From positions 4,679 to 68,678 of the forward strand of contig CAYMED010000006.1 of NCBI GenBank assembly GCA_964389655.1: a DNA stretch of 64,000 bases. Reading direction: 5' to 3'. Shown piece by piece: positions 4,109-63,600 of the stretch (the first letter of the stretch is position 1; each line of letters begins with the position of its first letter). Under the pieces are notes generated by a model, which saw nothing but the letters and a program-made list of their open reading frames with translations, did not search any database and was not told the DNA's origin. The DNA comes from an uncultured Candidatus Poseidoniales archaeon. GTDB lineage: Archaea > Thermoplasmatota > Poseidoniia > Poseidoniales > CAYMED01. Position numbers and translations under genes: made by a program.

Positions 4109-4592
4109 CCCCTATCCAATGAATTGTCCTCACACCCTTACCTGATGCGCCTGCTATCAATTCTGGTGCATCTGCAAGAGCCCAACCTAAGGCTAGAGGT
4201 TTGCAGTGCACTTCATCACGTATCCACACAAGGTCACCTTTTCCAATGTTGGATTCTGCATCTTGTATGCCTGCTTTCATGCAATCAGCACCATTTAGCA
4301 AAAATGAGACTGCCCCTAAATCAACAGAAACCCATCGGCGGTTTGGCTGATGTGAAAGAAGACCACGCAGAGTCAGAAAGGCGTGAGGAATTGAATTTTC
4401 ATCGGTTATCTGCACAAAATCGGCCTTTTTATCGATTAATAGAATTGTCCAATCACCCCATTCGGCTCGTTCAATCATTGAAGCACCTTCTGCAATACGC
4501 ACGTCCAATGCATCTTCAAGAGTTGTCAACATCGCATTGACTCCTTTACGCCGCACGGCGTGCCGGTGGCGCAGCATCCGTTCCCCAGACAT
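4083..4592 (-). CDS. PUA-domain RNA-binding protein (archaeal MCTS1/Tma20-like)
   Basis: VDLGAVSFLLNGADCMKAGI, KPLALG, GKGVRTIHWIGDDLW. Confidence 0.85.
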   Translation of the reverse strand: MSGERMLRHRHAVRRKGVNAMLTTLEDALDVRIAEGASMIERAEWGDWTILLIDKKADFVQITDENSIPHAFLTLRGLLSHQPNRRWVSVDLGAVSFLLNGADCMKAGIQDAESNIGKGDLVWIRDEVHCKPLALGWALADAPELIAGASGKGVRTIHWIGDDLWDLEP

Positions 4593-4713
4593 CACATCTG
4601 GAAGAGGGTCGCGTTATAGCACTCTCCGTCTATATCTTGATAGATGAAATGGCATGAAAACGCTGGAGGTTTGAAATATACCCTTCTCCCGGGTCCGATC
4701 CCGAGGTGAGTAG

Positions 4714-5091
4714 ATGGCACAGTGGCATGGGGTCTCCAAACGTAAGCGAACGGGTGGAAGACGAACTTTTGCGAGGGGTAAAAGAAAATTTGAAATTGCA
4801 TCTGAAAAGCAATTGGCCTTCGTTGGTGAAGGAAAACGCAAGCATTACCGCATACGTGGAAAAAATAAGCGAGTAAGGATTCTTGCTGCACGTTCAATCA
4901 ACGTTTCTGATTCAAAAACTGGAAAAAGTCAAGTCGCAAAAATACAAACCGTAGTAGAAAGCCCTGCAAATCCAAATTATGTTCGTCGTAATGTTCTAAC
5001 ACGTGGCTCGGTAGTAGAAACAGATCTTGGATTAGTTCGTGTGACCAGTCGTCCCGGACAACATGGCGTACTCAATGGCGAGCGGCTGTGA
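4714..5091 (+). CDS. rps8e: 30S ribosomal protein S8e
   Basis: WHGVSKRKRTGG...RRNVLTRG..VTSRPGQHGVLNG; SD GAGGTGA at 4703-4709. Confidence 0.98.
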   Translation: MAQWHGVSKRKRTGGRRTFARGKRKFEIASEKQLAFVGEGKRKHYRIRGKNKRVRILAARSINVSDSKTGKSQVAKIQTVVESPANPNYVRRNVLTRGSVVETDLGLVRVTSRPGQHGVLNGERL

Positions 5092-5110
5092 TGTTTGGCG
5101 GCGAACTTAA

Positions 5111-50054: not shown

Positions 50055-50450
50055 ATGGGGATGTCGCTGAGAGAATTAACGATCGCAATCCAACGCCATA
50101 TCGACACACAAATGGAGTACAATGTCGCTGAAGGAATGGCCGAACATGCACTTGGATTCTTCGGATATTACGATCGAATCATTGATAATGCACTTGAACC
50201 CACGGATCGAAATCTATTCTACATGTTCCAAGATTACGAGTTGCTAACGACTGAATCTGAAGAAACTACATTGTGGGATGGAAGAGACTGGCGCATACAC
50301 TATTGGAAGTTCAAACCAGATTTGAGAAGCAAGGTGCAGAAATATGCTGAAGAAGAAGAAAAAGACGAAGGCGATCCGTTTGCTGACATCTATTCCGAGA
50401 TTCCTGAATCAGTATGGGGCTTGCGGTCGGATGATGAAGACGAATCCTGA
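50055..50450 (+). CDS. Conserved hypothetical protein of Thermoplasmatota (recalled as DUF6015-like)
   Basis: AEHALGFFGYYDRIIDNALEPTDRNLFYM..EETTLWDGRDWRIHYW; family name from memory. Confidence 0.7.
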   Translation: MGMSLRELTIAIQRHIDTQMEYNVAEGMAEHALGFFGYYDRIIDNALEPTDRNLFYMFQDYELLTTESEETTLWDGRDWRIHYWKFKPDLRSKVQKYAEEEEKDEGDPFADIYSEIPESVWGLRSDDEDES

Positions 50451-53400
50451 AGTTCTACGTGTCCGTTCTGGAGCATTGCTGGGAATACTATTGCTGGCAA
50501 CCGTTTCTGCTGGATCTACTGAAAATAGTTCATCTAACCCCACGCTAGACATTCTTGTCGACTGGAGCATCGCTGCTAATGGGAGTCTAGATCCAGGAAT
50601 TATAATCGAGAGTAGTTCACAAATCGAGGGGAATTTATCAAATTGGATGCTCTCTGTTATTCGTTCTGGCGCTAATAATGAGGTCATATCATTCAATTCC
50701 AGTGATTCGAGCATTAGTGGTTATCGTTTCTCCCTATCCGAGCCACCTATTTATGGAGAAATCATCTCAATCCAAGTTCTTGAGAGTGGGATGAAAATTG
50801 CAGAGCGAGCATTCTCTGTTTCTCGATGGAATGAGCCAATTGGAGAACATGAAGTTGCTCTGCGAAGCGTTTGGGAGACAAAACAATCAGAGGCAATAAA
50901 TATTGAATCGTTTGCACTCTCCTTTGATGGACAAGGATGGCAAAAGCGCCATTCTAATGGTAAATTGACATTAGAAGAAAGGGGAATTGGATCTCTTCAG
51001 TTGAATGAAATAATTGATGGGCAAAATATCAGAGTAGATTTAGACCTAGATCGCGTGTGGAGAAACCTTAGCCTTTCCGAATCCGTTTTTGATTCTGAAA
51101 TCTTTGAAATGCATGGTAATGGGACAATCACATCTAGCCTATCAACTGTCGACCAACAGGAAGGGGCATTTGATGCAACAATATCTACTGCATCTTGGAT
51201 TCGAGAAACTTATCCCAATAGTACGCGTGAATGGGCACATCTCTCGGCATCTGGTGATTTAAGAATCACACCTTCATCGAATAATGAGGATAGACAGAAC
51301 GAGAAAGAGAGTTCTGAAAAAGAAGAGGATACCCAGAGAGGGTTAGATGTGAATGGGACAATTCATCGTTTTGCTGTTGAATTTGAAGATGTGAATGGCG
51401 AGCGCATATTTGATCGCTCTGCCCTTGAAGCTACAGCACAAGTCATATTCATAGACGGGGATCTCCGTTTTGTCTATGACCTTGAAGATATGACAATAAT
51501 TGAAGAGTGGAAAAATGGAGTTCGTGTAGAGCAAATTGATAGACAAACAGGGCAGGGCGTCTTTGGTGCAGTCATAGATGATGAAAATTCATCCATCATT
51601 GTGAATGGAACTATCGTGAATTTTCATCAGGAAAAAATCAATGGAAATACAACAGGGGACATATTACATGTTGATGGAACATTTTCAGGAGATATAAGTG
51701 GTTCATTTGGGACTCTCCGGGAACTTGAACGCCAAGGTCAAATGCAAAATAGCACCGGGGAACTTTTTGATGTCAACATTATTCGACATCAGGAATGGCT
51801 CAATTTATCAGGGGCAGGAGGGCTTCCTTCTCTTTTCGGTTCAATGGGGACCAGCCACAATGAAACTCTTTTCTGGGATGTTCGATCAACAGCATATGAT
51901 AATCGAACAATCCACCTAGAATGGGAAGAAACTGGTTCTGACCCGTCTTCAGGATCTGAATGGCCTGAACGGTCCCCCATACCATTTGATGAAAATCCAC
52001 CGAGAAGTGATTCTATTTTCGGATCGAGTAATACCACGCGAGAAAGAGGAATAATGCCCCTCCCCCTTCTACCCAAAGACAAAATATGCGTGATGGAAGA
52101 TTTAGTTGTCCGCCTTTGTATCACTGCAGAAGAAACTGATGAAGCCGACCTTGCAGGCCTCTCTGGGTTCAATGTGATTAAATGGAATGGGTCTTATGTT
52201 CAAGGAGGATCTGCTACCGGAGCGACAATCACATCTGGCCCATTAGCGGGGCTAATTGGATGGGTGGAACGTAATTTAGAAACTAGTTTTGGGGATATGC
52301 AAGAAACGATCACAGAAAATCAATCATTGATCAAGATTGTATACCCCCCTGTAGTAACTGCAGAAGAGAATGAGCCTCCAATCATTAGAAAAATTAGCTT
52401 GTCCGAAGGTGTTCTACTGAATGAGGGGGGATCTGCAGTGCTTGAAGTTCAAGTTGATGATCCAAATCATAATGTAATCGCTGTTGAGGTTGTAGTTGAT
52501 GGGAATAATTCAATTTCTCTTTCAGATAATGGATTAGATGGGGATCGTAATCCCGCAGATGATGTTTGGTCAATGAAGATTCATGCTGAAGGAATTAGAA
52601 CAGAACCCATTGAAATTACAGCCACTGCACGAGATGGATTTGCATTGAGTACACCACTGACAAAAATGATCCAAATCACCGATAGAGCACCTCGGTTAGT
52701 CTCAGCAACATTCATGCCAGTTCAGGCAGTTCGAGGTGAAAATATCAATACAACTATAATTGCAGAAGATGGACATGGAATCAGTGCCATCCAATTGGAT
52801 CTCAGATTATATGGTGGAGAATTGATTAATTTAAGTGATCATAAAAATACAGGAATGTGGATTGCTGAATTTACAATACCTTCAGGCATGCGCCCTGGTG
52901 TGCGCGATATATATTTGATAATGAGGGATGGCTTCGGCACAGAGGCTGCAACAACTGTATTTGGAGCATTAACAATTGACAATGAAGGGCCCCTCGTCAA
53001 CGCATCCCTCAACCCATATTCTGCAAAAAAAGAGAGGCAGGCAATGACGACGCTGCTAAGTGCGAGCCCAATTGATAAAGATGAAATTGTTTTAGTTGAA
53101 GCTCGCCTAGGTGTTTTTGATCCAAATGGCGATGAAACGAGATGGACACAATTGCATGATGATGGGCTCAACGGTGATTTGATTGCGAACGATGGTATTT
53201 GGACATTTGAAATAAATGTCAGGGAAGGAATTCCAGCGGGGAAATACCAAATTTGGATTCGAGCAACAGATGTATACGGGGGCACCGATTCAGAAGCGCT
53301 CGACTACATCCTAATTGAGGAAGATGCAAACCATACCACTGTCGAAGGAGCATTAGCGGGGATCACACCCATTATTGTTGGAGGGATATTGGTCACTGGA

Positions 53401-53475
53401 ATCATTGCAGCCACTATTGCAGCAGTCATAGCACTACCAAAATTGCGAAATGCCGTTAAAGATGACGATGTATAA
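50431..53475 (+). CDS. Large type-I single-pass surface protein with Ig-like / choice-of-anchor-X-like repeats
   Basis: Signal peptide from ATG 50431/50434; repeats LSDNGLDGDRNPADDVWS and LHDDGLNGDLIANDGIWT; C-terminal TM and short tail. Confidence 0.82.
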   Translation: MMKTNPEVLRVRSGALLGILLLATVSAGSTENSSSNPTLDILVDWSIAANGSLDPGIIIESSSQIEGNLSNWMLSVIRSGANNEVISFNSSDSSISGYRFSLSEPPIYGEIISIQVLESGMKIAERAFSVSRWNEPIGEHEVALRSVWETKQSEAINIESFALSFDGQGWQKRHSNGKLTLEERGIGSLQLNEIIDGQNIRVDLDLDRVWRNLSLSESVFDSEIFEMHGNGTITSSLSTVDQQEGAFDATISTASWIRETYPNSTREWAHLSASGDLRITPSSNNEDRQNEKESSEKEEDTQRGLDVNGTIHRFAVEFEDVNGERIFDRSALEATAQVIFIDGDLRFVYDLEDMTIIEEWKNGVRVEQIDRQTGQGVFGAVIDDENSSIIVNGTIVNFHQEKINGNTTGDILHVDGTFSGDISGSFGTLRELERQGQMQNSTGELFDVNIIRHQEWLNLSGAGGLPSLFGSMGTSHNETLFWDVRSTAYDNRTIHLEWEETGSDPSSGSEWPERSPIPFDENPPRSDSIFGSSNTTRERGIMPLPLLPKDKICVMEDLVVRLCITAEETDEADLAGLSGFNVIKWNGSYVQGGSATGATITSGPLAGLIGWVERNLETSFGDMQETITENQSLIKIVYPPVVTAEENEPPIIRKISLSEGVLLNEGGSAVLEVQVDDPNHNVIAVEVVVDGNNSISLSDNGLDGDRNPADDVWSMKIHAEGIRTEPIEITATARDGFALSTPLTKMIQITDRAPRLVSATFMPVQAVRGENINTTIIAEDGHGISAIQLDLRLYGGELINLSDHKNTGMWIAEFTIPSGMRPGVRDIYLIMRDGFGTEAATTVFGALTIDNEGPLVNASLNPYSAKKERQAMTTLLSASPIDKDEIVLVEARLGVFDPNGDETRWTQLHDDGLNGDLIANDGIWTFEINVREGIPAGKYQIWIRATDVYGGTDSEALDYILIEEDANHTTVEGALAGITPIIVGGILVTGIIAATIAAVIALPKLRNAVKDDDV

Positions 53476-53476
53476 A

Positions 53477-55630
53477 TCAAAAGCCAACGCCACTAGGTAT
53501 GAGCGCCATTGGGCCAATGACAATTATTGCAAATATGAGATGGCCAATGATCGATCCGCCATTTAGCAGGGGGAGACCTGGTTGTGGACGACCCATTGCA
53601 ACTGAAACCATGAGAAAAGAATAGCCAATTAAGCCACCAATGAGTGTTCCAATTGCAACCCACATGCCGGCACTTAAGCCGGCAGTGGGATCACTTGATA
53701 TCCAAGTAAGGGATGAAATCACCAACATCCCTGGAAATATAACATCACCCAACCCCATGAAAAGGGCATCTCGGTTTGAAGAAGAAGTGGATTCGGCTTG
53801 GTCAGTAGTGGGCTCAGTCCCTGCACGTTCTCTTAGATCTGAAGGGGATTTTGCATCACGGAAGGAATATCCTTTCTCTTGTGGAGATACCAATAATATA
53901 GGCAATTTGAGATCAATCATCGTGTCTGCAAGTTCAAGCATGTGTTTTGAACGGTGTACTGCCCAAAAATCATACACTGCTGCTAAAATCATAAACAATA
54001 TTACCAACCATGGAACAAAACTTACTCCAAGAATTGTCACAACTCCTGAACCGACAAGAATACCAACTGTATTCACAACCCACCACTCTGGATAAAATAT
54101 CAATGCCACCATCAAACTAACACATATGCCAAGTGCAATGATGTCCACAAGATAAACGCCCGCATCCCAAAGGAGAAAGACGGGTTTTTCAGTAGGAAGG
54201 TGAAGGCTTGCTGAGGTCCAATTCCCATTGAATACCAAAAACACATCTGAATCGTAAAGGCCCTCCTCTGACCACAATTCGTTAACATCATGACGCAATG
54301 AAAGTTGAGATTGATGTGAAGCGCCAAAATCATGCTTTAATGTCAAATGTTCTGTGAAAGAAGTACCTGAAAGCATTCGAAGGTGGGTCGAATCGGTCAC
54401 GAAAAGATCATTCCATCCACCCTGATTCCAATCGGCAAGTTTGAGCCCTAGAATCGGTGCATCAAATTCGTTTTTCACATTGAGGAGAGGTTTTTCTCCA
54501 AGAGAAAAATTTGAAAATACTTCAAAGCCAGTGACTGAGCCAGTACTATCTCCAAGAACAAGAATATTCGTCCCATCATCATCCACATGTGAGGACATTT
54601 CAGTGGTGGGTGAACGGCCAAATTCAATTGCAGTAAGAGAAATTGATTCACTCATATTTAATTGCCAATTTGTCTCAAATGGGACTCCACGTGACGCACC
54701 TTGGGGTCCAACCCCACAACGTGCACTCCACTGATCTGCAGGTGGGAGGTCAACAAGTGCTACCGATCCCGAATCTGCAATCATGAGATCTCCATTGTTT
54801 AAGAGTACTGCAGAAACCCAGGGTGCTCGCGTTGCCACACTTGATGGAAGACTACAAACAGTGTCTCCGTGTTCGTATTTTGGATCGAGCAGGGATATGC
54901 GCCGATGGTCAATTAACACGACTTGGCCTTCAAGTTCTAACGCATAATCGCAAGAAAATCGGCTTAGATCCCTGTCATCTCGATCTGCGTGCCCTTCAGA
55001 TCGCAAAGTTCCATTCTTTGCGTCAAGGATAGCCCAAGCATCTTCAGTACAGACTCCAATATAGCCATCACCCTGTGCGAGTAGTGGGGGTGCTTCGGGA
55101 GTCAAATTTGAAAGATTGTATGACCAGATAGTCTCTTTCTCTACCCCAATTGATGTTTTTGTTGGATTTCTTACTGCCTCAAGAGTGCTCCCATTCCACA
55201 ACAACATACCACTTCCATCGATTAAATCATCAAGGTATAGGTCTCCCTTGACTGGTTCATCAAAAGAGGGAGGATCTGTTGAATCTGATATCAAGAGAAA
55301 GGTGATTGGAGCAACTGAAGTCAGGAGAGCAAAGAAAAGAATGCCAAAAATCCCCCAGCGAATGATCCATTTGTGCCCTTTTTTAGCTAGCCAAATGATG
55401 AGCGCCGTAAATGCAAAAATAAGGAGTAATTCAAACCCAATCCACCTCACTTGTGAGGCGCCTTCTGTGCCAAATGCTCGGCTACTCTCGTTGTTGTGAT
55501 ATGGCTGTATCCAAATACCTAGTAGTATTGTTATGACAAACATGGTTGCCATACCAGCCATTGACACCCATTGTTCGCGTAGTAAAGCAAGCCGGTTGAG
55601 CGGGCCTCCTTCGGTTTGATTCTCGCTCAC
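53477..55630 (-). CDS. Presenilin/SPP-family (A22) GxGD intramembrane aspartyl protease with large inserted extracellular domain
   Basis: AVYDFWAV (YD), MGLGDV (GxGD), PGLP (PAL-like); 9 TM; about 375 soluble residues between TM3 and TM4; GTG start at 55630. Confidence 0.92.
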   Translation of the reverse strand: MSENQTEGGPLNRLALLREQWVSMAGMATMFVITILLGIWIQPYHNNESSRAFGTEGASQVRWIGFELLLIFAFTALIIWLAKKGHKWIIRWGIFGILFFALLTSVAPITFLLISDSTDPPSFDEPVKGDLYLDDLIDGSGMLLWNGSTLEAVRNPTKTSIGVEKETIWSYNLSNLTPEAPPLLAQGDGYIGVCTEDAWAILDAKNGTLRSEGHADRDDRDLSRFSCDYALELEGQVVLIDHRRISLLDPKYEHGDTVCSLPSSVATRAPWVSAVLLNNGDLMIADSGSVALVDLPPADQWSARCGVGPQGASRGVPFETNWQLNMSESISLTAIEFGRSPTTEMSSHVDDDGTNILVLGDSTGSVTGFEVFSNFSLGEKPLLNVKNEFDAPILGLKLADWNQGGWNDLFVTDSTHLRMLSGTSFTEHLTLKHDFGASHQSQLSLRHDVNELWSEEGLYDSDVFLVFNGNWTSASLHLPTEKPVFLLWDAGVYLVDIIALGICVSLMVALIFYPEWWVVNTVGILVGSGVVTILGVSFVPWLVILFMILAAVYDFWAVHRSKHMLELADTMIDLKLPILLVSPQEKGYSFRDAKSPSDLRERAGTEPTTDQAESTSSSNRDALFMGLGDVIFPGMLVISSLTWISSDPTAGLSAGMWVAIGTLIGGLIGYSFLMVSVAMGRPQPGLPLLNGGSIIGHLIFAIIVIGPMALIPSGVGF

Positions 55631-55715
55631 AGAACTGCACGGTGGACACTTCCCCTTTGAGACCTCGCCTGACAAACAAGGCGAGGTGTTGAAGCGAACA
55701 TGCTCATGCCAGCCC

Positions 55716-56966
55716 GTGAGCATTCGTGAGTGGCTCGAGTCACTGAAGGCGAAGGGAATGCGAAATAATCTAGACGCTGTAGAAAAAATCTACAGTGCTT
55801 TGGGAAGTCCGAGCAAATCATTGCCATCAATTCTTGTTATTGGAAGCAATGGAAAAGGTACTACTGCCGCCCTCATCGCTGCGGGACTTGAAATGGCGGG
55901 GATATCCTCAGGTCTTTACACATCACCACACCTAATTCATGTTGAAGAAAGAATACACATCAATGGCTATCAAATCAATTATAGTAAATTTGATTGGGCA
56001 TTAGAGAAAATCAGAGAAACCGTAGAAAAGGAAAAACTCGGAAAACCCACCTACTTTGAGGCAACATATCTTGCTGCAATGTTGCTCTTTAAGCACGAAA
56101 AAATAGCAAGTTTTGTTACTGAAGCCGGACTTGGGGGACGGTTAGATGCCACTCGGTTGAGTGACCCAAGAACTTCTGTTCTAACCAGCCTTTCACTTGA
56201 GCATACACAGATACTAGGTTCATCGCTAGAAGAAATTGCTCATGAAAAAATTTCTGCAGTGCCTAGCAAATCTGCACTAATTTATTTTGAAGAATATGGT
56301 ACTATGAATGCGATAAGAAGTGCTGGGCAGAGAGGAGTCACATTGGTTCCCGCACAGAAAATCATTAGTCAATATTGTCAAAATCAAATTAAGGGGATTG
56401 CTGCTGATTTAGCATATTCTGCACTCTGCATCGATTATCCTGAGATCGAATGGAAGAGTTACATAATGGATGCTGTTAAGCGACTCTATTGGCCAGCACG
56501 ACTAGAAAAAAGAGAGTTAATTGCTAATAATGGAGCTGCTTGTCCATGGTGGATCGACGCTGCGCATAATCCTGCGGGAATGAAGATGGCAGCAGCATGG
56601 ATTCATGATTCCACATTCAAACGGAGATGCTTCATCATCGGGTCTTCTTTGCGCAATGATATACATGAACATCTCAAACCAATTTCAGAATGTTTTTGTG
56701 ACAAGGACATAGTCATCATAGTTGAGCCAAAGAGCGGAAGAAATGCACCGACCTCGATAAAAGATATCAAAGATATATTCACCCAACAATGTAAAGGCAG
56801 AGAAATTAATTATGTCAGTGCAAAATGTCCAAATGATGCACTTGAAATCGCAAAGAAATTGATTGAAAAAGCGGAAATTGATCTTGTTGCCAGTTTGGGA
56901 AGCCTATACTTGCAGGGCGACCTTCTAGCTGCTGCTAAAATCAAGATCGAAGGCCGGCTTTGGTGA
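55716..56966 (+). CDS. folC: Folylpolyglutamate synthase/dihydrofolate synthase
   Basis: GSNGKGTT, YTSPHL..ERI, TYFE, EAGLGGRLDAT, WPARLE, DAAHNPAG, GSLYL. Confidence 0.93.
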   Translation: MSIREWLESLKAKGMRNNLDAVEKIYSALGSPSKSLPSILVIGSNGKGTTAALIAAGLEMAGISSGLYTSPHLIHVEERIHINGYQINYSKFDWALEKIRETVEKEKLGKPTYFEATYLAAMLLFKHEKIASFVTEAGLGGRLDATRLSDPRTSVLTSLSLEHTQILGSSLEEIAHEKISAVPSKSALIYFEEYGTMNAIRSAGQRGVTLVPAQKIISQYCQNQIKGIAADLAYSALCIDYPEIEWKSYIMDAVKRLYWPARLEKRELIANNGAACPWWIDAAHNPAGMKMAAAWIHDSTFKRRCFIIGSSLRNDIHEHLKPISECFCDKDIVIIVEPKSGRNAPTSIKDIKDIFTQQCKGREINYVSAKCPNDALEIAKKLIEKAEIDLVASLGSLYLQGDLLAAAKIKIEGRLW

Positions 56967-57006
56967 AGCCGGCAAACCTATGCACTCTCCTTGGGCTTCA
57001 AGGTAC

Positions 57007-57726
57007 ATGTCAAATCATGGCGACGGGCCAACGCGATACAGCCTCCTTTCAGATCGTGCAATAAATCACCGAATTAAACAGGGATCCATCGTCATAGAGC
57101 CATATCATTCAGCACAACTCGGCACCGCATCATATGATGTTACTTTAGGGCCCCATTACTTCCGAGAACAACAACCGGAAGTAGGACAAGGAGTGTATAA
57201 CCCCTATGATGAAAAGATGGTTCGGCGCGTTTGGGGCGAGTCACGTATAGCGCAGTCTGCTTCTGAATGGATGGAAAGTAACACAAAAAAACTCAACGGC
57301 ATATTTCAAAATGATCTAATTATATGGGTCGAACCTGGTGAAACGATCCTAGGTCACACGATGGAATTTCTTGGGGGAAGAGATACTGTAAATACAATGA
57401 TGAAAGCAAGGTCATCAATGGGTCGTAATTTTATTGAAACCTGCAAATGTGCTGGATGGGGAGATATTGGATATGTCAATAGATGGACAATGGAAATTAC
57501 AAACAATAGTAGACACTATTCCATCCCTCTCATTGTAGGGAGGAGAATTGCGCAGATTGTTTTTTTTGAAACTGATGGTCCTACAAAAGGGAGGTCTTAT
57601 GCAGATGAAGGAAAATATCAAGTTACACCAAATGTAGAGGAATTGAAATCTGCATGGGTACCTGAATCCATGCTACCAAAAATGTACCTTGACCGGGAAG
57701 TTCAAGATATGAAAAGCAATTCCTAA
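57007..57726 (+). CDS. dcd: dCTP deaminase
   Basis: LLSDRAI, SYDVTLG, ARSSMGR, AGWGDIGY..WTMEI, RIAQIVF, GKYQ. Confidence 0.9.
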   Translation: MSNHGDGPTRYSLLSDRAINHRIKQGSIVIEPYHSAQLGTASYDVTLGPHYFREQQPEVGQGVYNPYDEKMVRRVWGESRIAQSASEWMESNTKKLNGIFQNDLIIWVEPGETILGHTMEFLGGRDTVNTMMKARSSMGRNFIETCKCAGWGDIGYVNRWTMEITNNSRHYSIPLIVGRRIAQIVFFETDGPTKGRSYADEGKYQVTPNVEELKSAWVPESMLPKMYLDREVQDMKSNS

Positions 57727-60686
57727 GACCAGTATCGCCTTGTTCTAGCATATTCAAGTTCTGCACGGTGAATTGCTTCAAGCAAGGACCGTTCATCAGA
57801 ACCTTCAATCGATCGCAAAACACGCTGAGCTGTTGTTTCACCAATGCCTCTTCCCATCATTGTTAGAATTGCAATTCGGCCATGTCGTTTGACCAGTTCT
57901 GCATTGCGGGTCATGCGGTCACTATGTTCTGGATCATTCAGCCATTTTTTGAGCATGTCACAGAGATTTTCACGAACAGATACAAGCATTTTCCCTTTGC
58001 ACCCGTTACAAGAAAGAGGACCACCCTCAATTTTTGCCACTCGTTGACTGCGAACTCTTTCGCAATTCATGCAAATCATTACTGCACGCTCATTCTCCAA
58101 ACGACTACGTAATTGACTGATGACTTCATCATTGGTAAATTCAGGGAGGCGAAGCCCTTTACGATTTTTTGTTGAAAAGCCCAATGGGCCGGCTGGTGTT
58201 TTGAATACGCGTATTTTCCCTGATTGAATATCTAGGAGAATTTGCTCAGCAGTGATCAAATCAAGACGTTCGTGAATCACTTTATTCATGGATTCTTTCC
58301 ATAACGGGGTACCACGCATCGCTCGCATCATTCCCCCAATCTCTATGCGCCGAGGGTCTTTTACTGTACGAAGGTGACCAAATCCCCGCGCTACTTGCAC
58401 AAAGCGATGTCTCATTGCACGGCTATTGGGCAATACTGTTTCCAAAATAGGCCTTAGCGCGCTTGGAGGAATTGTATTCAACCATCCCTCGACGTCAGAG
58501 GTCGAACAGCCGGGGACATCTAGGTTAATTCTGACGGCATCACTAGACATTGATCCCATGCGTCCCTCACGCGTTGAAGCCATAGCTTGAAGGGCAAGGC
58601 CAAGAGTCTCATTAGCCCCATTACCAGCACAACAAAGTATGGATAATCCACTTTTTCGCCTCTCAATTGTTATTGTGCGGTCATCAGGGATGATTCCTCC
58701 TGTCAAATCTGCGTGCTCAGCGATCCGGGAAAGGATCACCCCTCGTGCTGAAGCATCAATTGGAAGGTCTTTCCAATATCTCATGGCCAGTTGGGAATTT
58801 AAATTCGATTCATCTTGAATTCCAATTTCGATTCCTGCAGCCCTCCTAATGGCTCCAATCTCAAAAGCCACCTCTGCTGGAACAAGGGGGACTTCGCCTG
58901 ACCAAACTGGCGCGTCTGCAAAACTTGTTCCGGGACTGACAACTAATTCACCTTCCTCAAGGTCAGCATCAATCACGGACCACACTCGACCTGCCATGAC
59001 AAATGCGCGTGAATCTGGGTCTGATTCATCTGGAAGGCTAAGAACAAATGATTCATCTACAACCCCAAGAATGCGGCGGCTGACGACATCTCGAACTCGA
59101 ACACGACGCTCATTATGGATCATTGAAAGAGAATGGATCGCTGTTCTCCACCCCCTCCCCGTAGCCTTAAACCAACCATTTTTCCAGCGAGGGGGGATTG
59201 CGCTATTTTCCATCAATTGTTCATCTGATTGGTTCAGATCTTTAGAAATCCATGGCCAATTAGATCGGTCTGCTGCCATTGGATCAGGAAATACATCTAC
59301 CAACCATCGTTCCTGCATTTGCTTAAGAATCTCGATAAGGTATCCACGATCTAAATATTCAAATTGCCCACTAGATCGTAAAAGAGAAACCATGCGCGGA
59401 AGAGGTACAGCACCCTCTGAACGTGAAACAAGTAAACATTGATTCAGAATTACAAGAGTGGGATTGGGACGTGGTGAGACTGGGTCGAGGTCCCCACACA
59501 TTGCTCGACGAGAAATCACTGATGATTCTAAGAGGTCATCAAAATCCCAGCAATAAATTGAACCAATTGCTGTTCCATTCACACAGTGATTAGACCTCCC
59601 AATGCGCTGGACTAGGCGACTAGCAGTTTTGGGTGAACGGAGTTGAACCACAGAACCAATTGTTCCGACATCCAAGCCGAGTTCAAGTGAACTTGTACAG
59701 ATCAGCGCATCTATTTCCCCATTCCGCAAGCGGTTTTCAGCATCTTCTCTAGTTTCATATGCCAAACTACCATGGTGAACATCAACTGTGTGATTAAGCG
59801 ATATTTTATCCAACCTCTGGCCTACTGTTTCTGCTTCTGACCGAGAGGTACAAAATACAAGAGACGGGCCATGATTCGAAATATGTTCTGAAAGTGCGAA
59901 TAAAGCAGCAGTTGCTTCCTTTGATGTTCGAAGTTCATGAGAAGACACTTCAGCCATCTCTGACGCTTCAATCCAACGAGTGGAGATTTGAATTGGGCGG
60001 GGTTTGGGGTCAATCCATACTTTGGCACCATTAGCTACCCAATTTGCAAGTTCTTTCGGATTTCCAACTGTTGCAGAAAGACCAATTCGTTGTAGAGAAT
60101 GACCTGCTAAATCTTCTAAACGAGAAAGGGCAACAGATAGTTGTGATCCTCGCTCTGAAGATGCAATTTCATGTACCTCATCCAAAATCACTGCTTGTAC
60201 TTTGGATATCATCGCACGAACCTTGGGGCCAAGGAAAAGTGCCTGCAATGTCTCAGGAGTTGTTACTAGAAGGTCAGGGGGATTTTTTGTTTGGCGTTGC
60301 CTTTGATAGGGAGATGTATCCCCATGACGGACTGATGTGCTAATATCCAGCACTTTGGCCATTTTGTCTAAGCGAAAACCTAAATCGCGGTTGAGAGACC
60401 TTAGGGGAGTAATATGGATAATTGAGCACGGCGCCCAATTATGGTCCATACGGCGCTGTAAAAGTGGTAACAATGCTGCTTCAGTCTTACCAGAACCCGT
60501 TGGAGCAATCAGTAAGGCATCATCACCATGAATTATTGATTTCATGGATATTTGCTGGATGCCTGTTGGTTTCCAATCCGAAACAATGGGGGAAAAGGCA
60601 GCATTTAACTGCTTGAAAGAGTCGATGATACGACCTCTGCAGGATTTACTGATAAGATTCTGTGACTTCTTCTTCGCTATCCTCAT
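57723..60686 (-). CDS. lhr: Lhr-family SF2 helicase with C-terminal Zn finger and HhH motif (start uncertain)
   Basis: Q motif PTGIQ, APTGSGKT, TTPET, DEVH, SAT, HHGSL, TSSLELGLD, QRIGRS; CMNC..CNGC; GRGIGETTA. Confidence 0.9.
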   Translation of the reverse strand: MRIAKKKSQNLISKSCRGRIIDSFKQLNAAFSPIVSDWKPTGIQQISMKSIIHGDDALLIAPTGSGKTEAALLPLLQRRMDHNWAPCSIIHITPLRSLNRDLGFRLDKMAKVLDISTSVRHGDTSPYQRQRQTKNPPDLLVTTPETLQALFLGPKVRAMISKVQAVILDEVHEIASSERGSQLSVALSRLEDLAGHSLQRIGLSATVGNPKELANWVANGAKVWIDPKPRPIQISTRWIEASEMAEVSSHELRTSKEATAALFALSEHISNHGPSLVFCTSRSEAETVGQRLDKISLNHTVDVHHGSLAYETREDAENRLRNGEIDALICTSSLELGLDVGTIGSVVQLRSPKTASRLVQRIGRSNHCVNGTAIGSIYCWDFDDLLESSVISRRAMCGDLDPVSPRPNPTLVILNQCLLVSRSEGAVPLPRMVSLLRSSGQFEYLDRGYLIEILKQMQERWLVDVFPDPMAADRSNWPWISKDLNQSDEQLMENSAIPPRWKNGWFKATGRGWRTAIHSLSMIHNERRVRVRDVVSRRILGVVDESFVLSLPDESDPDSRAFVMAGRVWSVIDADLEEGELVVSPGTSFADAPVWSGEVPLVPAEVAFEIGAIRRAAGIEIGIQDESNLNSQLAMRYWKDLPIDASARGVILSRIAEHADLTGGIIPDDRTITIERRKSGLSILCCAGNGANETLGLALQAMASTREGRMGSMSSDAVRINLDVPGCSTSDVEGWLNTIPPSALRPILETVLPNSRAMRHRFVQVARGFGHLRTVKDPRRIEIGGMMRAMRGTPLWKESMNKVIHERLDLITAEQILLDIQSGKIRVFKTPAGPLGFSTKNRKGLRLPEFTNDEVISQLRSRLENERAVMICMNCERVRSQRVAKIEGGPLSCNGCKGKMLVSVRENLCDMLKKWLNDPEHSDRMTRNAELVKRHGRIAILTMMGRGIGETTAQRVLRSIEGSDERSLLEAIHRAELEYARTRRYWS

Positions 60687-63600
60687 CAAAGAAATCTTCT
60701 TCATCGTGGTAATACCCTGTTAAATCATCAGGGGAAGTGCGGTTTGCGATAATGGCGACGAGGAAAAGGACAGAAATCATGCCTACAATGGCAAAAATCG
60801 GCAATGGACTTGAGCGGGCTGAGTCAACCCAACCAAATCCACGAGCATACGCAACATCAATTGTGACACAGCCACTATTGTCACCCACATCTTCATTGAC
60901 TTCTGGAATGTCATTTTGGCTATCAATCAGAACAAATACCCGGTCATGCCCTTCTTTGGCATTCCAAGTTGCAGAAATTTCAATCACCTCACCACTATCT
61001 AAACCATTAACAATCGGTCTTGAAGAAAATCGTTCAGTTTCTGTACAAGTCATCCCTGAAGAAAAGTCAACTTGGAACGTTGAATTTGTTTGACCACCCC
61101 GGTTGGTCAGTGTCGCTCGCACTTCAATCTCACTTCCTTCAGAAACAACTGAATCTTCAATCCACAAATTCACCACAGCTAATTCCGCAGACCCTCCTTT
61201 TTCATCTGAGTCCATGCGAGTACCTAATTTAATCCAAGCAGGGTCATTATCCCCCGCTAACGAGAGGGGAAGGCGAATAGGATCTGCCTCTGTATTCTGT
61301 AAACTTGGAAAGGGGTTTCCTGCATGATCTGTTCCCGTCACCCATATGCCAATCGTATTTCCAGAATTAATTTTCTCAACCCCGCATTCTGTGAGGTCAA
61401 TAGAACCTCCCCACTCTAATTCGTCATCAATCTGAGTAATAGACAAAGGAGATAATCCAGCACAAACCGGAAAAATTCCATCCCTCATAATCCAATGTAC
61501 ATTATGGCTTGCATCAATCATTGGAGCATCTTCCCACCCCATGATGCGCACTGGGACCGCTGTGAGGTCTGAAGGATTACTCACATCTAATACTGGAGGT
61601 GGTTCAATGCGATGAGAAACTTGAGGGGGGGAACGATCAACTTCCAACCGTAAAGTCGTTGCAACAAGCCCACCCGTCATATCTTCACCATTTTTAGGAA
61701 TTCCTGAAATTCTGCTGATAAATGTACGAATGGGCGCCCCTGCTTGCGATTCAGATGCATCTAGCGGAACTTCAACTAGAAATGTTCCATCTAAATCAAG
61801 GCTTGAGTCAAGCCAATTCTGTTCCCCATCAAAGATAGATACACGAATCCCTAAGCCAATAGGGGGGGCGATCGAAGTACCTTGGTAAAGAACGCGCCCT
61901 CGAAAGCGCAGACGATCATCTGTGCGAATTCGGTCTCCATCTTTGACAGGACCTATTCGCGGAGTTGAGACGTCTTCGACTAAATGGTCAACTGCAGAAA
62001 AAACAAGGTCATTTTCAACAGAAAATGTATGATCTTCCCAAATCATGACTCTAGGTTGTATTGAGCCCAACTCATGAATCGTAAGAGAAAGGTCTCCGAG
62101 ATCCTCATCGGGCCAATCCCATCCAAATTCAAAACGGAAATCAACAGTTATTAGAGGAAGGCCAGATTCATTCGTTGCAAGATTGATTGTGCTGCTTTGT
62201 AGTAAGCGTATCACTGAACTTTCAGACCAAAACGTCTGGTTGACACCGCTAAAGGCAATTTGTTGCGCATCTCTTTCGGGGTCTGGACCTTCAAAATCAA
62301 ATGTTAGGCCAATCTCCCTAAAGTCTCGCAATCCATTCGCATCTACTAAAGTAACCCGGACTGATTGTTCAATCCCTGAATGAAGGGCTTCGCCATCCAC
62401 GTGAGGAAGCCATCCATCTTTGGAGCATGTCAACATAGATATTTGATCTGGCACCATACACTCTAGCCATTCTAAGCCAAGGACCACGGTGGGGCTATCT
62501 TGTCGTGAACGATAAGTTACTAAGGGAGAATCAATGATGGGGTTTCCGGCCTGATCAGTACCAACAATGCGGTATACCACTCGTGCATTATTTGGGTTAC
62601 GGGAATCATCAATTATAGTTTCAAAGACTTTCTTTTCCGCTGATGTTGAATTGACCATTGTCTTATTGATAAATTCATTCTCTTCAGAAATTCCATTGCG
62701 GTTGATGTCATGTACTGACTCTACCCAGTACTCTAATTTCAGCTGATTTGGATCACCAACTGAATCTAAAATTACATGCTCTATCGTTTGGTCGGAACGT
62801 GCCTCAACGTAATCATTTTGACTAGGACTGGAATAAATCACACTCGGTGGTGTTGCATCGATAAGAAGTGTCCGGCTATGCTGGGGAGTTGGTGGCAAAA
62901 TCCATCTTGGATCTTGTTCATTATAGGTCATCACACTAAGGTCAATTCCCCCCGGCACATCTTGTTTTGGCATTTCCACACTGATGAAGAATGAGCCACC
63001 ATAATTTGAGCGGTCCCTCCAAGATGGATCTGCAATTCCATTTAGTGCAACTTGAACGTCATATACCGCATCTAATGGTGCATCATTGGTCCCATAAAAA
63101 GCAACGTCTCCTGCAAAATGAATCGTTTCACCGGCCATGACCCATTCACCATCCAATACATTCTCTCGTTGTACAAGACCTGAATCATCGATTACTTTCA
63201 CATCAGAGATTCCGTATGAATGATTGACCGATAGGCTTGTGGGGCCAGAAGATAATTCTGCTGGGATACGACCAATAGAGTCTTCACACGCTACTGCAAA
63301 TGCAATTCCGCTTTGCTGAGGAAAGGATTGTTTAACACGAAATGCCCAATGGATCTCAAGGATACCACCGATTTCTTCGGTTGAACTTTGATCGGGTACG
63401 ACTTCTATCCAATCTTGCCCATCTTCATATTCAGTGAATGAACTTGGTGAAGACCATTTCAACTTAGGCGAGTCTGGAAGCGGATTGGCAATAAAACGAA
63501 GATCTGCTTCTACGATCCCACCCGTTGCATCCTCGCCAATCACATGTCGGCTTGTTACAATGTATGGTTGTTCTCTAGCGTGTAGAGTTTCGTTAGATGG

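Follow-up and report, generated by a model that had tools for sequence, protein, structure and literature searches.

The presenilin homologue (PSH) encoded in a 64,000-nucleotide stretch from an uncultured Candidatus Poseidoniales archaeon (contig CAYMED010000006.1, positions 4,679 to 68,678; the whole stretch is called the window here) carries a large additional domain between its third and fourth transmembrane helices (TM3 and TM4). From model and profile comparisons we read this insert as a strongly diverged seven-bladed β-propeller of the FG-GAP type with about 370 residues, and from sequence features we strongly infer that its place is extracellular, right above the outer side of the helix bundle. 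A propeller-bearing PSH is the usual form in the order Poseidoniales (Marine Group II) and not particular to the genome studied. The propeller might act in cis as a filter or receptor for the substrates of the protease, a reading to which we assign a probability of roughly 45%. PSH is the standard minimal model for presenilin and γ-secretase, and substrate selection from the outer side is still debated, for γ-secretase with respect to nicastrin and for the SPPL proteases with respect to their PA domain.

The gene is an uninterrupted open frame that yields 748 amino acids (aa) when read from its first ATG. A GTG start at 55630 gives the 717-aa form kept in the public protein collection (P0001) and is the likelier one, because a divergent folC-like open reading frame (ORF) begins at 55686 and is overlapped by the first ATG. 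Residue numbers of motifs, helices and insert refer to P0001 unless the 748-aa form is named. PSH is single-copy in the genome (2.1 Mb, 93% complete). The features of the locus are as follows, each with the evidence on which it is placed.

53477-55723, minus strand: whole ORF of the long presenilin homologue (ORF call, profile matches, database homologues)
55289-55576, minus strand: TM1-TM3, P0001 19-114 (model helices 10-45, 61-83 and 87-114)
54173-55288, minus strand: inserted ectodomain, P0001 115-486, 372 residues (profile gaps, AlphaFold2 model, structural matches)
54941-54961, minus strand: invariant cysteine C227, putative disulfide with C194 (alignment columns)
54398-54439, minus strand: FG-GAP-like loop LADWNQGGWNDLFV, P0001 398-411 (alignment, model, profile match)
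53945-54172, minus strand: TM4-TM6 including PEWWVVNT (54068-54094) and the catalytic YD (53957-53983) (model, 4hyc alignment, conservation)
53771-53944, minus strand: TM6-TM7 loop, predicted cytoplasmic, P0001 563-620 (nine lysines and arginines, two short strands, low-confidence stretch 611-617)
53480-53770, minus strand: TM7-TM9 with GLGD (53744-53755) and PQPGLPLLNGG (53555-53587) (model, 4hyc alignment, conservation)
55686-56966, plus strand: divergent folC-like gene (TIGR01499, 228.7 bits; starts at a GTG within the 5' end of PSH in its 748-aa reading)

By its sequence the protein is a PSH-type intramembrane aspartyl protease (MEROPS A22, presenilin orientation) of predicted activity. 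The NCBIfam model of the archaeal presenilin homologue PSH (NF041679) matches with 210.7 bits against a cut-off of 125, in two stretches, and the Pfam SPP family PF06550 with 178.9 bits (2e-52, cut-off 23.9). This second match is confined to residues 521-733 of the 748-aa form, the last 213 residues, and to profile positions 86-279. An earlier note on this DNA, made from its letters alone, had pointed out complete YD, GLGD and PGLP motifs, and all three are present: the catalytic YD in AAVYDFWAV (residues 550-558; Y553-D554), GLGD at residues 626-629 (Asp629) and the PAL-equivalent PQPGLPLLNGG at residues 682-692, before TM9. In 73 long homologues both catalytic aspartates and their neighbouring residues are invariant, as are Q683, L686, P687, L688, L689 and N690 of the PAL-equivalent motif. 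The full-length AlphaFold2 model (predicted local distance difference test, pLDDT, 83.6; predicted template modelling score, pTM, 0.73) contains nine long helices, arranged as three helices, strands at 131-476 and six helices; TM3 ends at 114 and TM4 begins at 494. A Foldseek search with this model returned a list filled by propeller matches, which carries no information on the membrane core. An SPPL2-type protease of family A22B was considered and rejected: PF04258 stays below its cut-off in the PSH protein (21.5 versus 23.3 bits), a PA domain is not matched, and the extra domain is internal.

The insert itself is real at residues 115-486, since PF06550 covers only the C-terminal part and NF041679 matches in two stretches. 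The soluble insert that the earlier note had placed at about 55288-54160 is thereby refined to 54173-55288; the several cysteines and sequons ascribed to it amount to four Cys and seven N-x-S/T. In the protein database, four homologues (743-792 aa, 33-35% identical) align over 92-97% of the query, and 297 related stretches were found in species-representative public genomes. The best 80 of these 297 all span the insert and belong to records named Poseidoniales, Thalassarchaeaceae or Poseidoniaceae. Across 83 relatives the insert is 338-414 aa long.

What kind of domain is it? Modelled alone by AlphaFold2 from an alignment of 85 sequences, the insert is predicted with confidence to form a seven-bladed propeller rather than the unstructured segment that had been thought possible (pLDDT 85.6, pTM 0.86): it is all-beta, with about 27 strands in seven groups and two short helices. 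The strands span residues 131-476, with linkers of about 15 residues on either side. A wide structural search gives Z scores of 19-21 over 275-320 residues to seven-bladed propellers, the top ranks being tied between RACK1, WD40 proteins, BBS proteins and integrin alpha; the integrin alpha chains score 19.3-19.4. Foldseek of the insert places BamB first with a TM-score of only 0.45-0.48, and the best match in the ESM Atlas (TM-score 0.78) is a 693-aa PF06550 cluster from Thermoplasmatota, that is, other long PSHs. Structural ranking alone was therefore discarded as a guide to the family, as WD40, BamB, integrin and BBS propellers tie.

The assignment to a diverged FG-GAP type is made because a profile of the insert matches a true FG-GAP repeat and because the nearest language-model clusters are all FG-GAP, with scores of 0.81-0.84 that are at the level of a lead only. 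Profile positions 286-356, which cover a nearly invariant D-x-N-x-G-G-x-x-D-L loop, match residues ~99-173 of a 1436-aa surface protein (E 2e-5, one blade only), and at this site the surface protein exceeds the Pfam cut-offs for both FG-GAP (42.6 bits) and FG-GAP_3 (37 bits). In the window the loop is LADWNQGGWNDLFV, between the first two strands of blade 6; its D289 and G294 (insert numbering) are nearly invariant, as is the DL that follows. When the 85 sister inserts are compared with Pfam, two match FG-GAP_3 (best 2.3e-4), one FG-GAP and one PQQ_2, and the window's own insert matches no Pfam family at E 0.01. The FG-GAP-like character that the earlier note had seen in DWNQGGWNDLFV thus holds weakly, through the profile match, the two sister inserts in 85 and the lead-level clusters. 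Its PQQ-like reading of AILDAKNG (55010-55033) barely survives, with one insert in 85 at E 0.009 and none for the window's insert. A PQQ/BamB propeller (PF13360) was rejected on this lack of a match in the window insert, on the seven rather than eight blades of the model and on the low TM-score to BamB.

Searched alone against 1.84 billion representatives, the insert gave eleven matches, ten of which are 706-779 aa long, the size of long PSHs; the four that were scanned carry PF06550. A free-standing relative of the insert was not found in this collection. The only match that is not a PSH, P0014 (1394 aa, E 4e-4), aligns insert residues 90-157 in six stretches, has no Pfam family and may be a repeat protein of similar blades.

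Several observations bear on the side of the membrane that the propeller faces. Lysines and arginines in the short loops number 16 in those predicted to be inner versus 1 in those predicted to be outer, which argues for presenilin topology with the TM3-TM4 loop outside. Together with the model, these counts predict nine helices with a cytoplasmic N-terminus and TM6-TM7 loop. Every insert has at least two cysteines, one of which is invariant (C227, insert position 116), and its partner occupies one of two columns: insert position 83 (36% of sequences; C194 in the protein studied, at window 55040-55057) or insert position 104 (64%). An invariant cysteine with a partner at alternative columns is the pattern expected of a conserved disulfide, which we regard as putative. 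Sequons of the type N-x-S/T average 6.11 per insert against 3.33 in composition-matched shuffles (about 1.8-fold), with counts above expectation in 85 of 85 inserts. A net charge of about -50 also counts toward an outside location. Taken together, the charge counts, cysteine pair and sequons make a cytoplasmic insert very unlikely and the predicted orientation, an outside-facing loop as the earlier note had supposed, very probable.

How widespread is this architecture? A PSH match is present in 118 of 121 genomes of the order Poseidoniales. The long form, recognised by open frames of about 700-870 aa and a Pfam match that starts at profile position ~88-96, occurs in the family to which the window belongs, in every Poseidoniaceae genus sampled and in six genera of Thalassarchaeaceae. 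A short form of 350-420 aa is found in seven Thalassarchaeaceae genera with genomes of 1.3-1.5 Mb and retains some 12 residues where the insert would be, compared with 0-7 in the short forms of Marine Group III and most others (up to 13 in two). The folC-like gene divergently adjoins PSH in 57 of 58 long loci and in 20 of the 20 short Poseidoniales loci fetched, and this shared neighbour makes the long and short genes positional orthologues. We use folC as a positional marker and it is not thought to be a functional partner of PSH. In a quick maximum-likelihood tree of the core, from which the insert columns had been removed, the Poseidoniales PSHs form one clade (support 100), with the Marine Group III short forms as sister group (83) and the short Poseidoniales forms on one side of a single branch (96; also 88). 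Since the Thalassarchaeaceae hold both forms, one loss of the propeller during genome streamlining is the most economical history; the tree alone fits gain as well as loss.

The survey of A22 proteases for TM3-TM4 inserts that the earlier note had suggested reveals them at the same site not only in Poseidoniales but also in at least nine other Thermoplasmatota families, whose PSHs of 530-780 aa likewise have a Pfam match from profile position ~90. Ten such proteins that were fetched (L092-L101; 532-767 aa) contain inserts of 211-388 aa at the same TM3-TM4 site; L098 matches FG-GAP_3 with 29.4 bits and L096 the BBS7 propeller with 27.4 bits, both reaching the Pfam cut-off. Most of these ten inserts open on an acidic E-(E/S)-W motif and close with a blade of the FG-GAP type, D-x-D-G-D...L-I-x-G. 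A common origin with the Poseidoniales inserts was considered, but the comparisons do not establish it: profile-profile comparison gives a probability of 10.7% (E 0.003, one blade), and the Poseidoniales insert profile did not find the inserts of ten genomes with other long PSHs, its only match being in G123 (E 0.023). In the core tree these other long PSHs branch off at two or more points of a weakly supported backbone. One ancient insertion followed by many losses, and repeated insertions at a permissive site, both fit these data.

Some irregular members of the family deserve mention. Two short PSHs of one streamlined Thalassarchaeaceae genus, L116 (G054:C17:52900-54750) and L117 (G024:C53:1100-2900), have about 51 mostly hydrophobic residues at the insert site versus the usual 12. 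The segment ends in YRYP(K/E), resembling the PEW motif after TM4, and may represent two extra helices that arose by local duplication. A typical Poseidoniales long PSH, L015 (CAXRJJ010000003.1), lies on a contig filed under a metagenome-assembled genome (MAG) of the alphaproteobacterial Yoonia sp.; it clusters tightly with the copy of a UBA euryarchaeote, and a binning error in the Yoonia MAG is most likely.

The two parts of the protein evolve at different rates. Mean identity to the window protein is 19% in the insert versus 48-57% in the membrane core (48% in the TM1-TM3 region). In 87 close pairs, which are not independent of one another, the median ratio of nonsynonymous to synonymous divergence (dN/dS) is 0.125 in the insert versus 0.044 in the core. 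The insert is thus under clear purifying selection that is about three times more relaxed than in the core. Several pairs with nearly identical cores have a far more diverged insert, synonymous sites included, for example with a dS of 0.66 in the core and 1.68 in the insert. For L064/L046, L049/L051 and L049/L078, the flanks are about 80-88% identical at the nucleotide level but the insert (~4300-5100 of the locus) only 56-72%, and synonymous divergence of the insert reaches up to 2.5 times that of the core; in L049/L078 the folC-like neighbour has a similar trough. Such troughs may stem from the exchange of diverged alleles or from strong diversification of an exposed domain, and both fit.

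What could the propeller do there? Linkers of roughly 15 residues tether it where TM3 and TM4 end on the outer side. Structures of presenilin with substrate place type I stubs among TM2, TM3 and TM5, where their outer ends emerge; presenilin-type enzymes admit such stubs between TM2/TM3 and TM6, and the outer end comes out next to TM3. A domain attached to TM3 must lie beside this exit or above it. As a substrate filter or receptor in cis, the propeller would either keep out membrane proteins whose ectodomains are bulky or capture particular substrates by their outer stub, and would thereby set which transmembrane segments reach the active site; relatives with a 12-residue loop would be ungated proteases. 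In function such a filter would be comparable to nicastrin, to the PA domains of SPPL2 proteases and to the propellers of prolyl oligopeptidase and tricorn. The sensor or gate, and the regulated intramembrane proteolysis, that the earlier note had proposed are conjectural in the same way. A more far-reaching version, which we consider less likely than not, is that Marine Group II and several other Thermoplasmatota have, separately or anciently, arrived at a single-chain equivalent of γ-secretase, in which the propeller selects or excludes type I stubs and diverges fast, at synonymous sites as well, through co-evolution with variable surface substrates or with viruses that land on it. The long PSH and its natural deletion variants at the same locus in sister lineages make a ready-made pair for the question of ectodomain gating. 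The archaeal group concerned ranks among the most abundant in the surface ocean, and this gene encodes its only presenilin-type protease. If single-chain gating is true, the long PSH would be the simplest natural system in which to study ectodomain gating of presenilin; should the propeller play no part in the choice of substrates, what is left is an unusual domain insertion within a known family.

A number of points weigh against a filter or receptor. The position of the propeller over the lateral gate is argued from connectivity. A whole clade of streamlined Thalassarchaeaceae does without the insert, so it is not needed for core activity. No other part of the locus evolves as fast as the insert, where nucleotide identity dips locally, and the conserved positions of the insert are mostly Gly, Trp, Pro and Asp of a structural type, with no obvious binding site. 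We know of no substrate, partner or ligand for any archaeal PSH. A 2022 review lists the function of the archaeal A22 enzyme, the Haloferax homologue, as unknown. That there is nothing to explain in the first place, the insert having arisen by chimeric assembly or by the mistaken joining of two genes, or being a disordered or cytoplasmic stretch, is hardly credible. Its sole oddity is the first ATG overlapping the divergent folC-like ORF, and nothing else of the kind was found; against it stand the uninterrupted frame, the confident predicted fold, and the positive-inside rule, cysteine pair and sequon enrichment, all of which indicate the outside. Hundreds of independent assemblies share the architecture, and the chimera that the earlier note had named as one possible refutation is ruled out by the best 80 of the 297 related stretches, so that an artefact is excluded as far as sequence data allow.

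Two other roles are more serious contenders. The propeller might be a sensor or docking module that binds a ligand or partner (glycan, peptide, calcium, S-layer or surface protein) and so switches or localises the protease, which would cover anything from a true device of signal-regulated proteolysis to mere positioning of the enzyme in the envelope. Ligand binding is the classical job of FG-GAP and integrin-type propellers, a motif resembling a calcium loop (D289, G294 and the DL after them) is all but invariant, the insert profile matches true FG-GAP repeats in large surface proteins, and fast divergence under purifying selection fits co-evolution with a variable outer partner. We nonetheless consider this role unlikely: the neighbourhood, in which only folC and a helicase keep synteny, offers no candidate partner gene, the surface yielded no patch of clear conservation and no downstream signalling component was found. 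We rate slightly lower still the reading that the propeller is a largely dispensable decoration or stabiliser, protecting or rigidifying the outer face, for instance, and shed on streamlining. Such a role would agree with the single clade of 1.3-1.5 Mb Thalassarchaeaceae genomes that has a 12-residue loop at the same locus, with an insert identity of merely 19% and with conserved residues that mostly look structural. It sits poorly with a dN/dS of 0.125, far below neutrality, with a fold, length (338-414 aa) and cysteine pair kept over order-wide divergence, and with the same-site inserts of other Thermoplasmatota families; moreover, a secreted domain of 370 residues is costly for an oligotrophic plankter.

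The surroundings of the gene can be described briefly. Convergent with PSH lies a 1043-aa ORF (window 50344-53475, plus strand) without a Pfam family; only a short stretch towards the C-terminus matches 'choice-of-anchor X' (NF041940, 34.4 bits), which makes the product probably a large surface protein, and the ORF stands beside PSH in none of 58 related loci. Further out are a DUF6015 gene (2e-57; 50055-50450, plus strand), a dCTP deaminase-like gene (56980-57726, plus strand) and a helicase of the Lhr-type DEAD/DEAH class with a DEAD_assoc domain (57723-60704, minus strand), which is syntenic in 28 of 58 loci. An exosortase/archaeosortase (PF09721) was sought as a source of type I stubs; the only match scored 18.4 bits against a cut-off of 25.7, with a profile that proved insensitive in a control. 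This sub-threshold match sits at G000:C10:26492-26767 on the plus strand, in a 311-aa frame.

Among proteins of known structure, the only relative by sequence is PSH/MCMJR1 of Methanoculleus marisnigri (4HYC, 4HYD, 4HYG, 4Y6K), with the same nine helices, YD in TM6, GxGD in TM7 and GLP(P/L)LNGG before TM9. The match to 4hyc (E 4.6e-30) pairs query residues 504-703 with chain residues 112-292 and, weakly, TM1-TM3 with chain residues 5-99; the YD and GxGD motifs line up, and PQPGLPLLNGG of the query aligns with PQAGLPPLNGG. The 4hyc chain has 301 aa and a TM3-TM4 loop of a dozen residues at most (TM3 to ~99, TM4 from ~103-112) versus 372 here. The alignment therefore shows that the characterised enzyme has only a short loop where the protein studied has 372 residues, in line with the length of about 300 aa and the short loop that the earlier note had given for characterised homologues. 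A full-text literature search, which did not take in one 2021 survey of archaeal intramembrane aspartyl proteases, found no paper that describes a propeller between TM3 and TM4 of a PSH, which agrees with the claim that the layout is new.

With γ-secretase the long PSH shares a protease of presenilin orientation below a large domain over the outer face. Nicastrin is credited with the steric exclusion of substrates whose ectodomains are long, the job proposed here for the propeller. It is, however, a type I subunit in its own right, folded like an alpha/beta aminopeptidase, whereas the domain here is all-beta and built in cis into a loop, and PF05450 has no match in the PSH protein (E up to 1) or in the genome (E up to 0.1). 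Because the folds differ and no nicastrin is encoded, the likeness is one of analogy and not homology, and of the nicastrin-like gate proposed in the earlier note at most a functional analogy is left.

SPP-type enzymes sit in the membrane the other way round and cleave type II substrates. SPPL2a/b/c (MEROPS A22B) resemble the long PSH as A22 proteases with a built-in extracytoplasmic domain, and in SPPL2 proteases the PA domain was shown to contribute to the recognition of substrates (PMC12043953). It is N-terminal, luminal and of another fold, whereas the propeller here is internal. Like the propellers of FG-GAP proteins and integrin alpha (PF01839, PF13517), the insert has seven blades and a D-x-N-x-G-G-x-x-D loop between the first two strands of a blade; unlike typical FG-GAP propellers it keeps the motif in only one blade and, in the window, has no Pfam match, and by structure WD40 and BamB propellers score equally. 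In prolyl oligopeptidase and the tricorn protease of Thermoplasma, a fused β-propeller is thought to filter or channel substrates. These are soluble serine proteases with the propeller over a soluble active site, whereas the active site here is embedded in the membrane.

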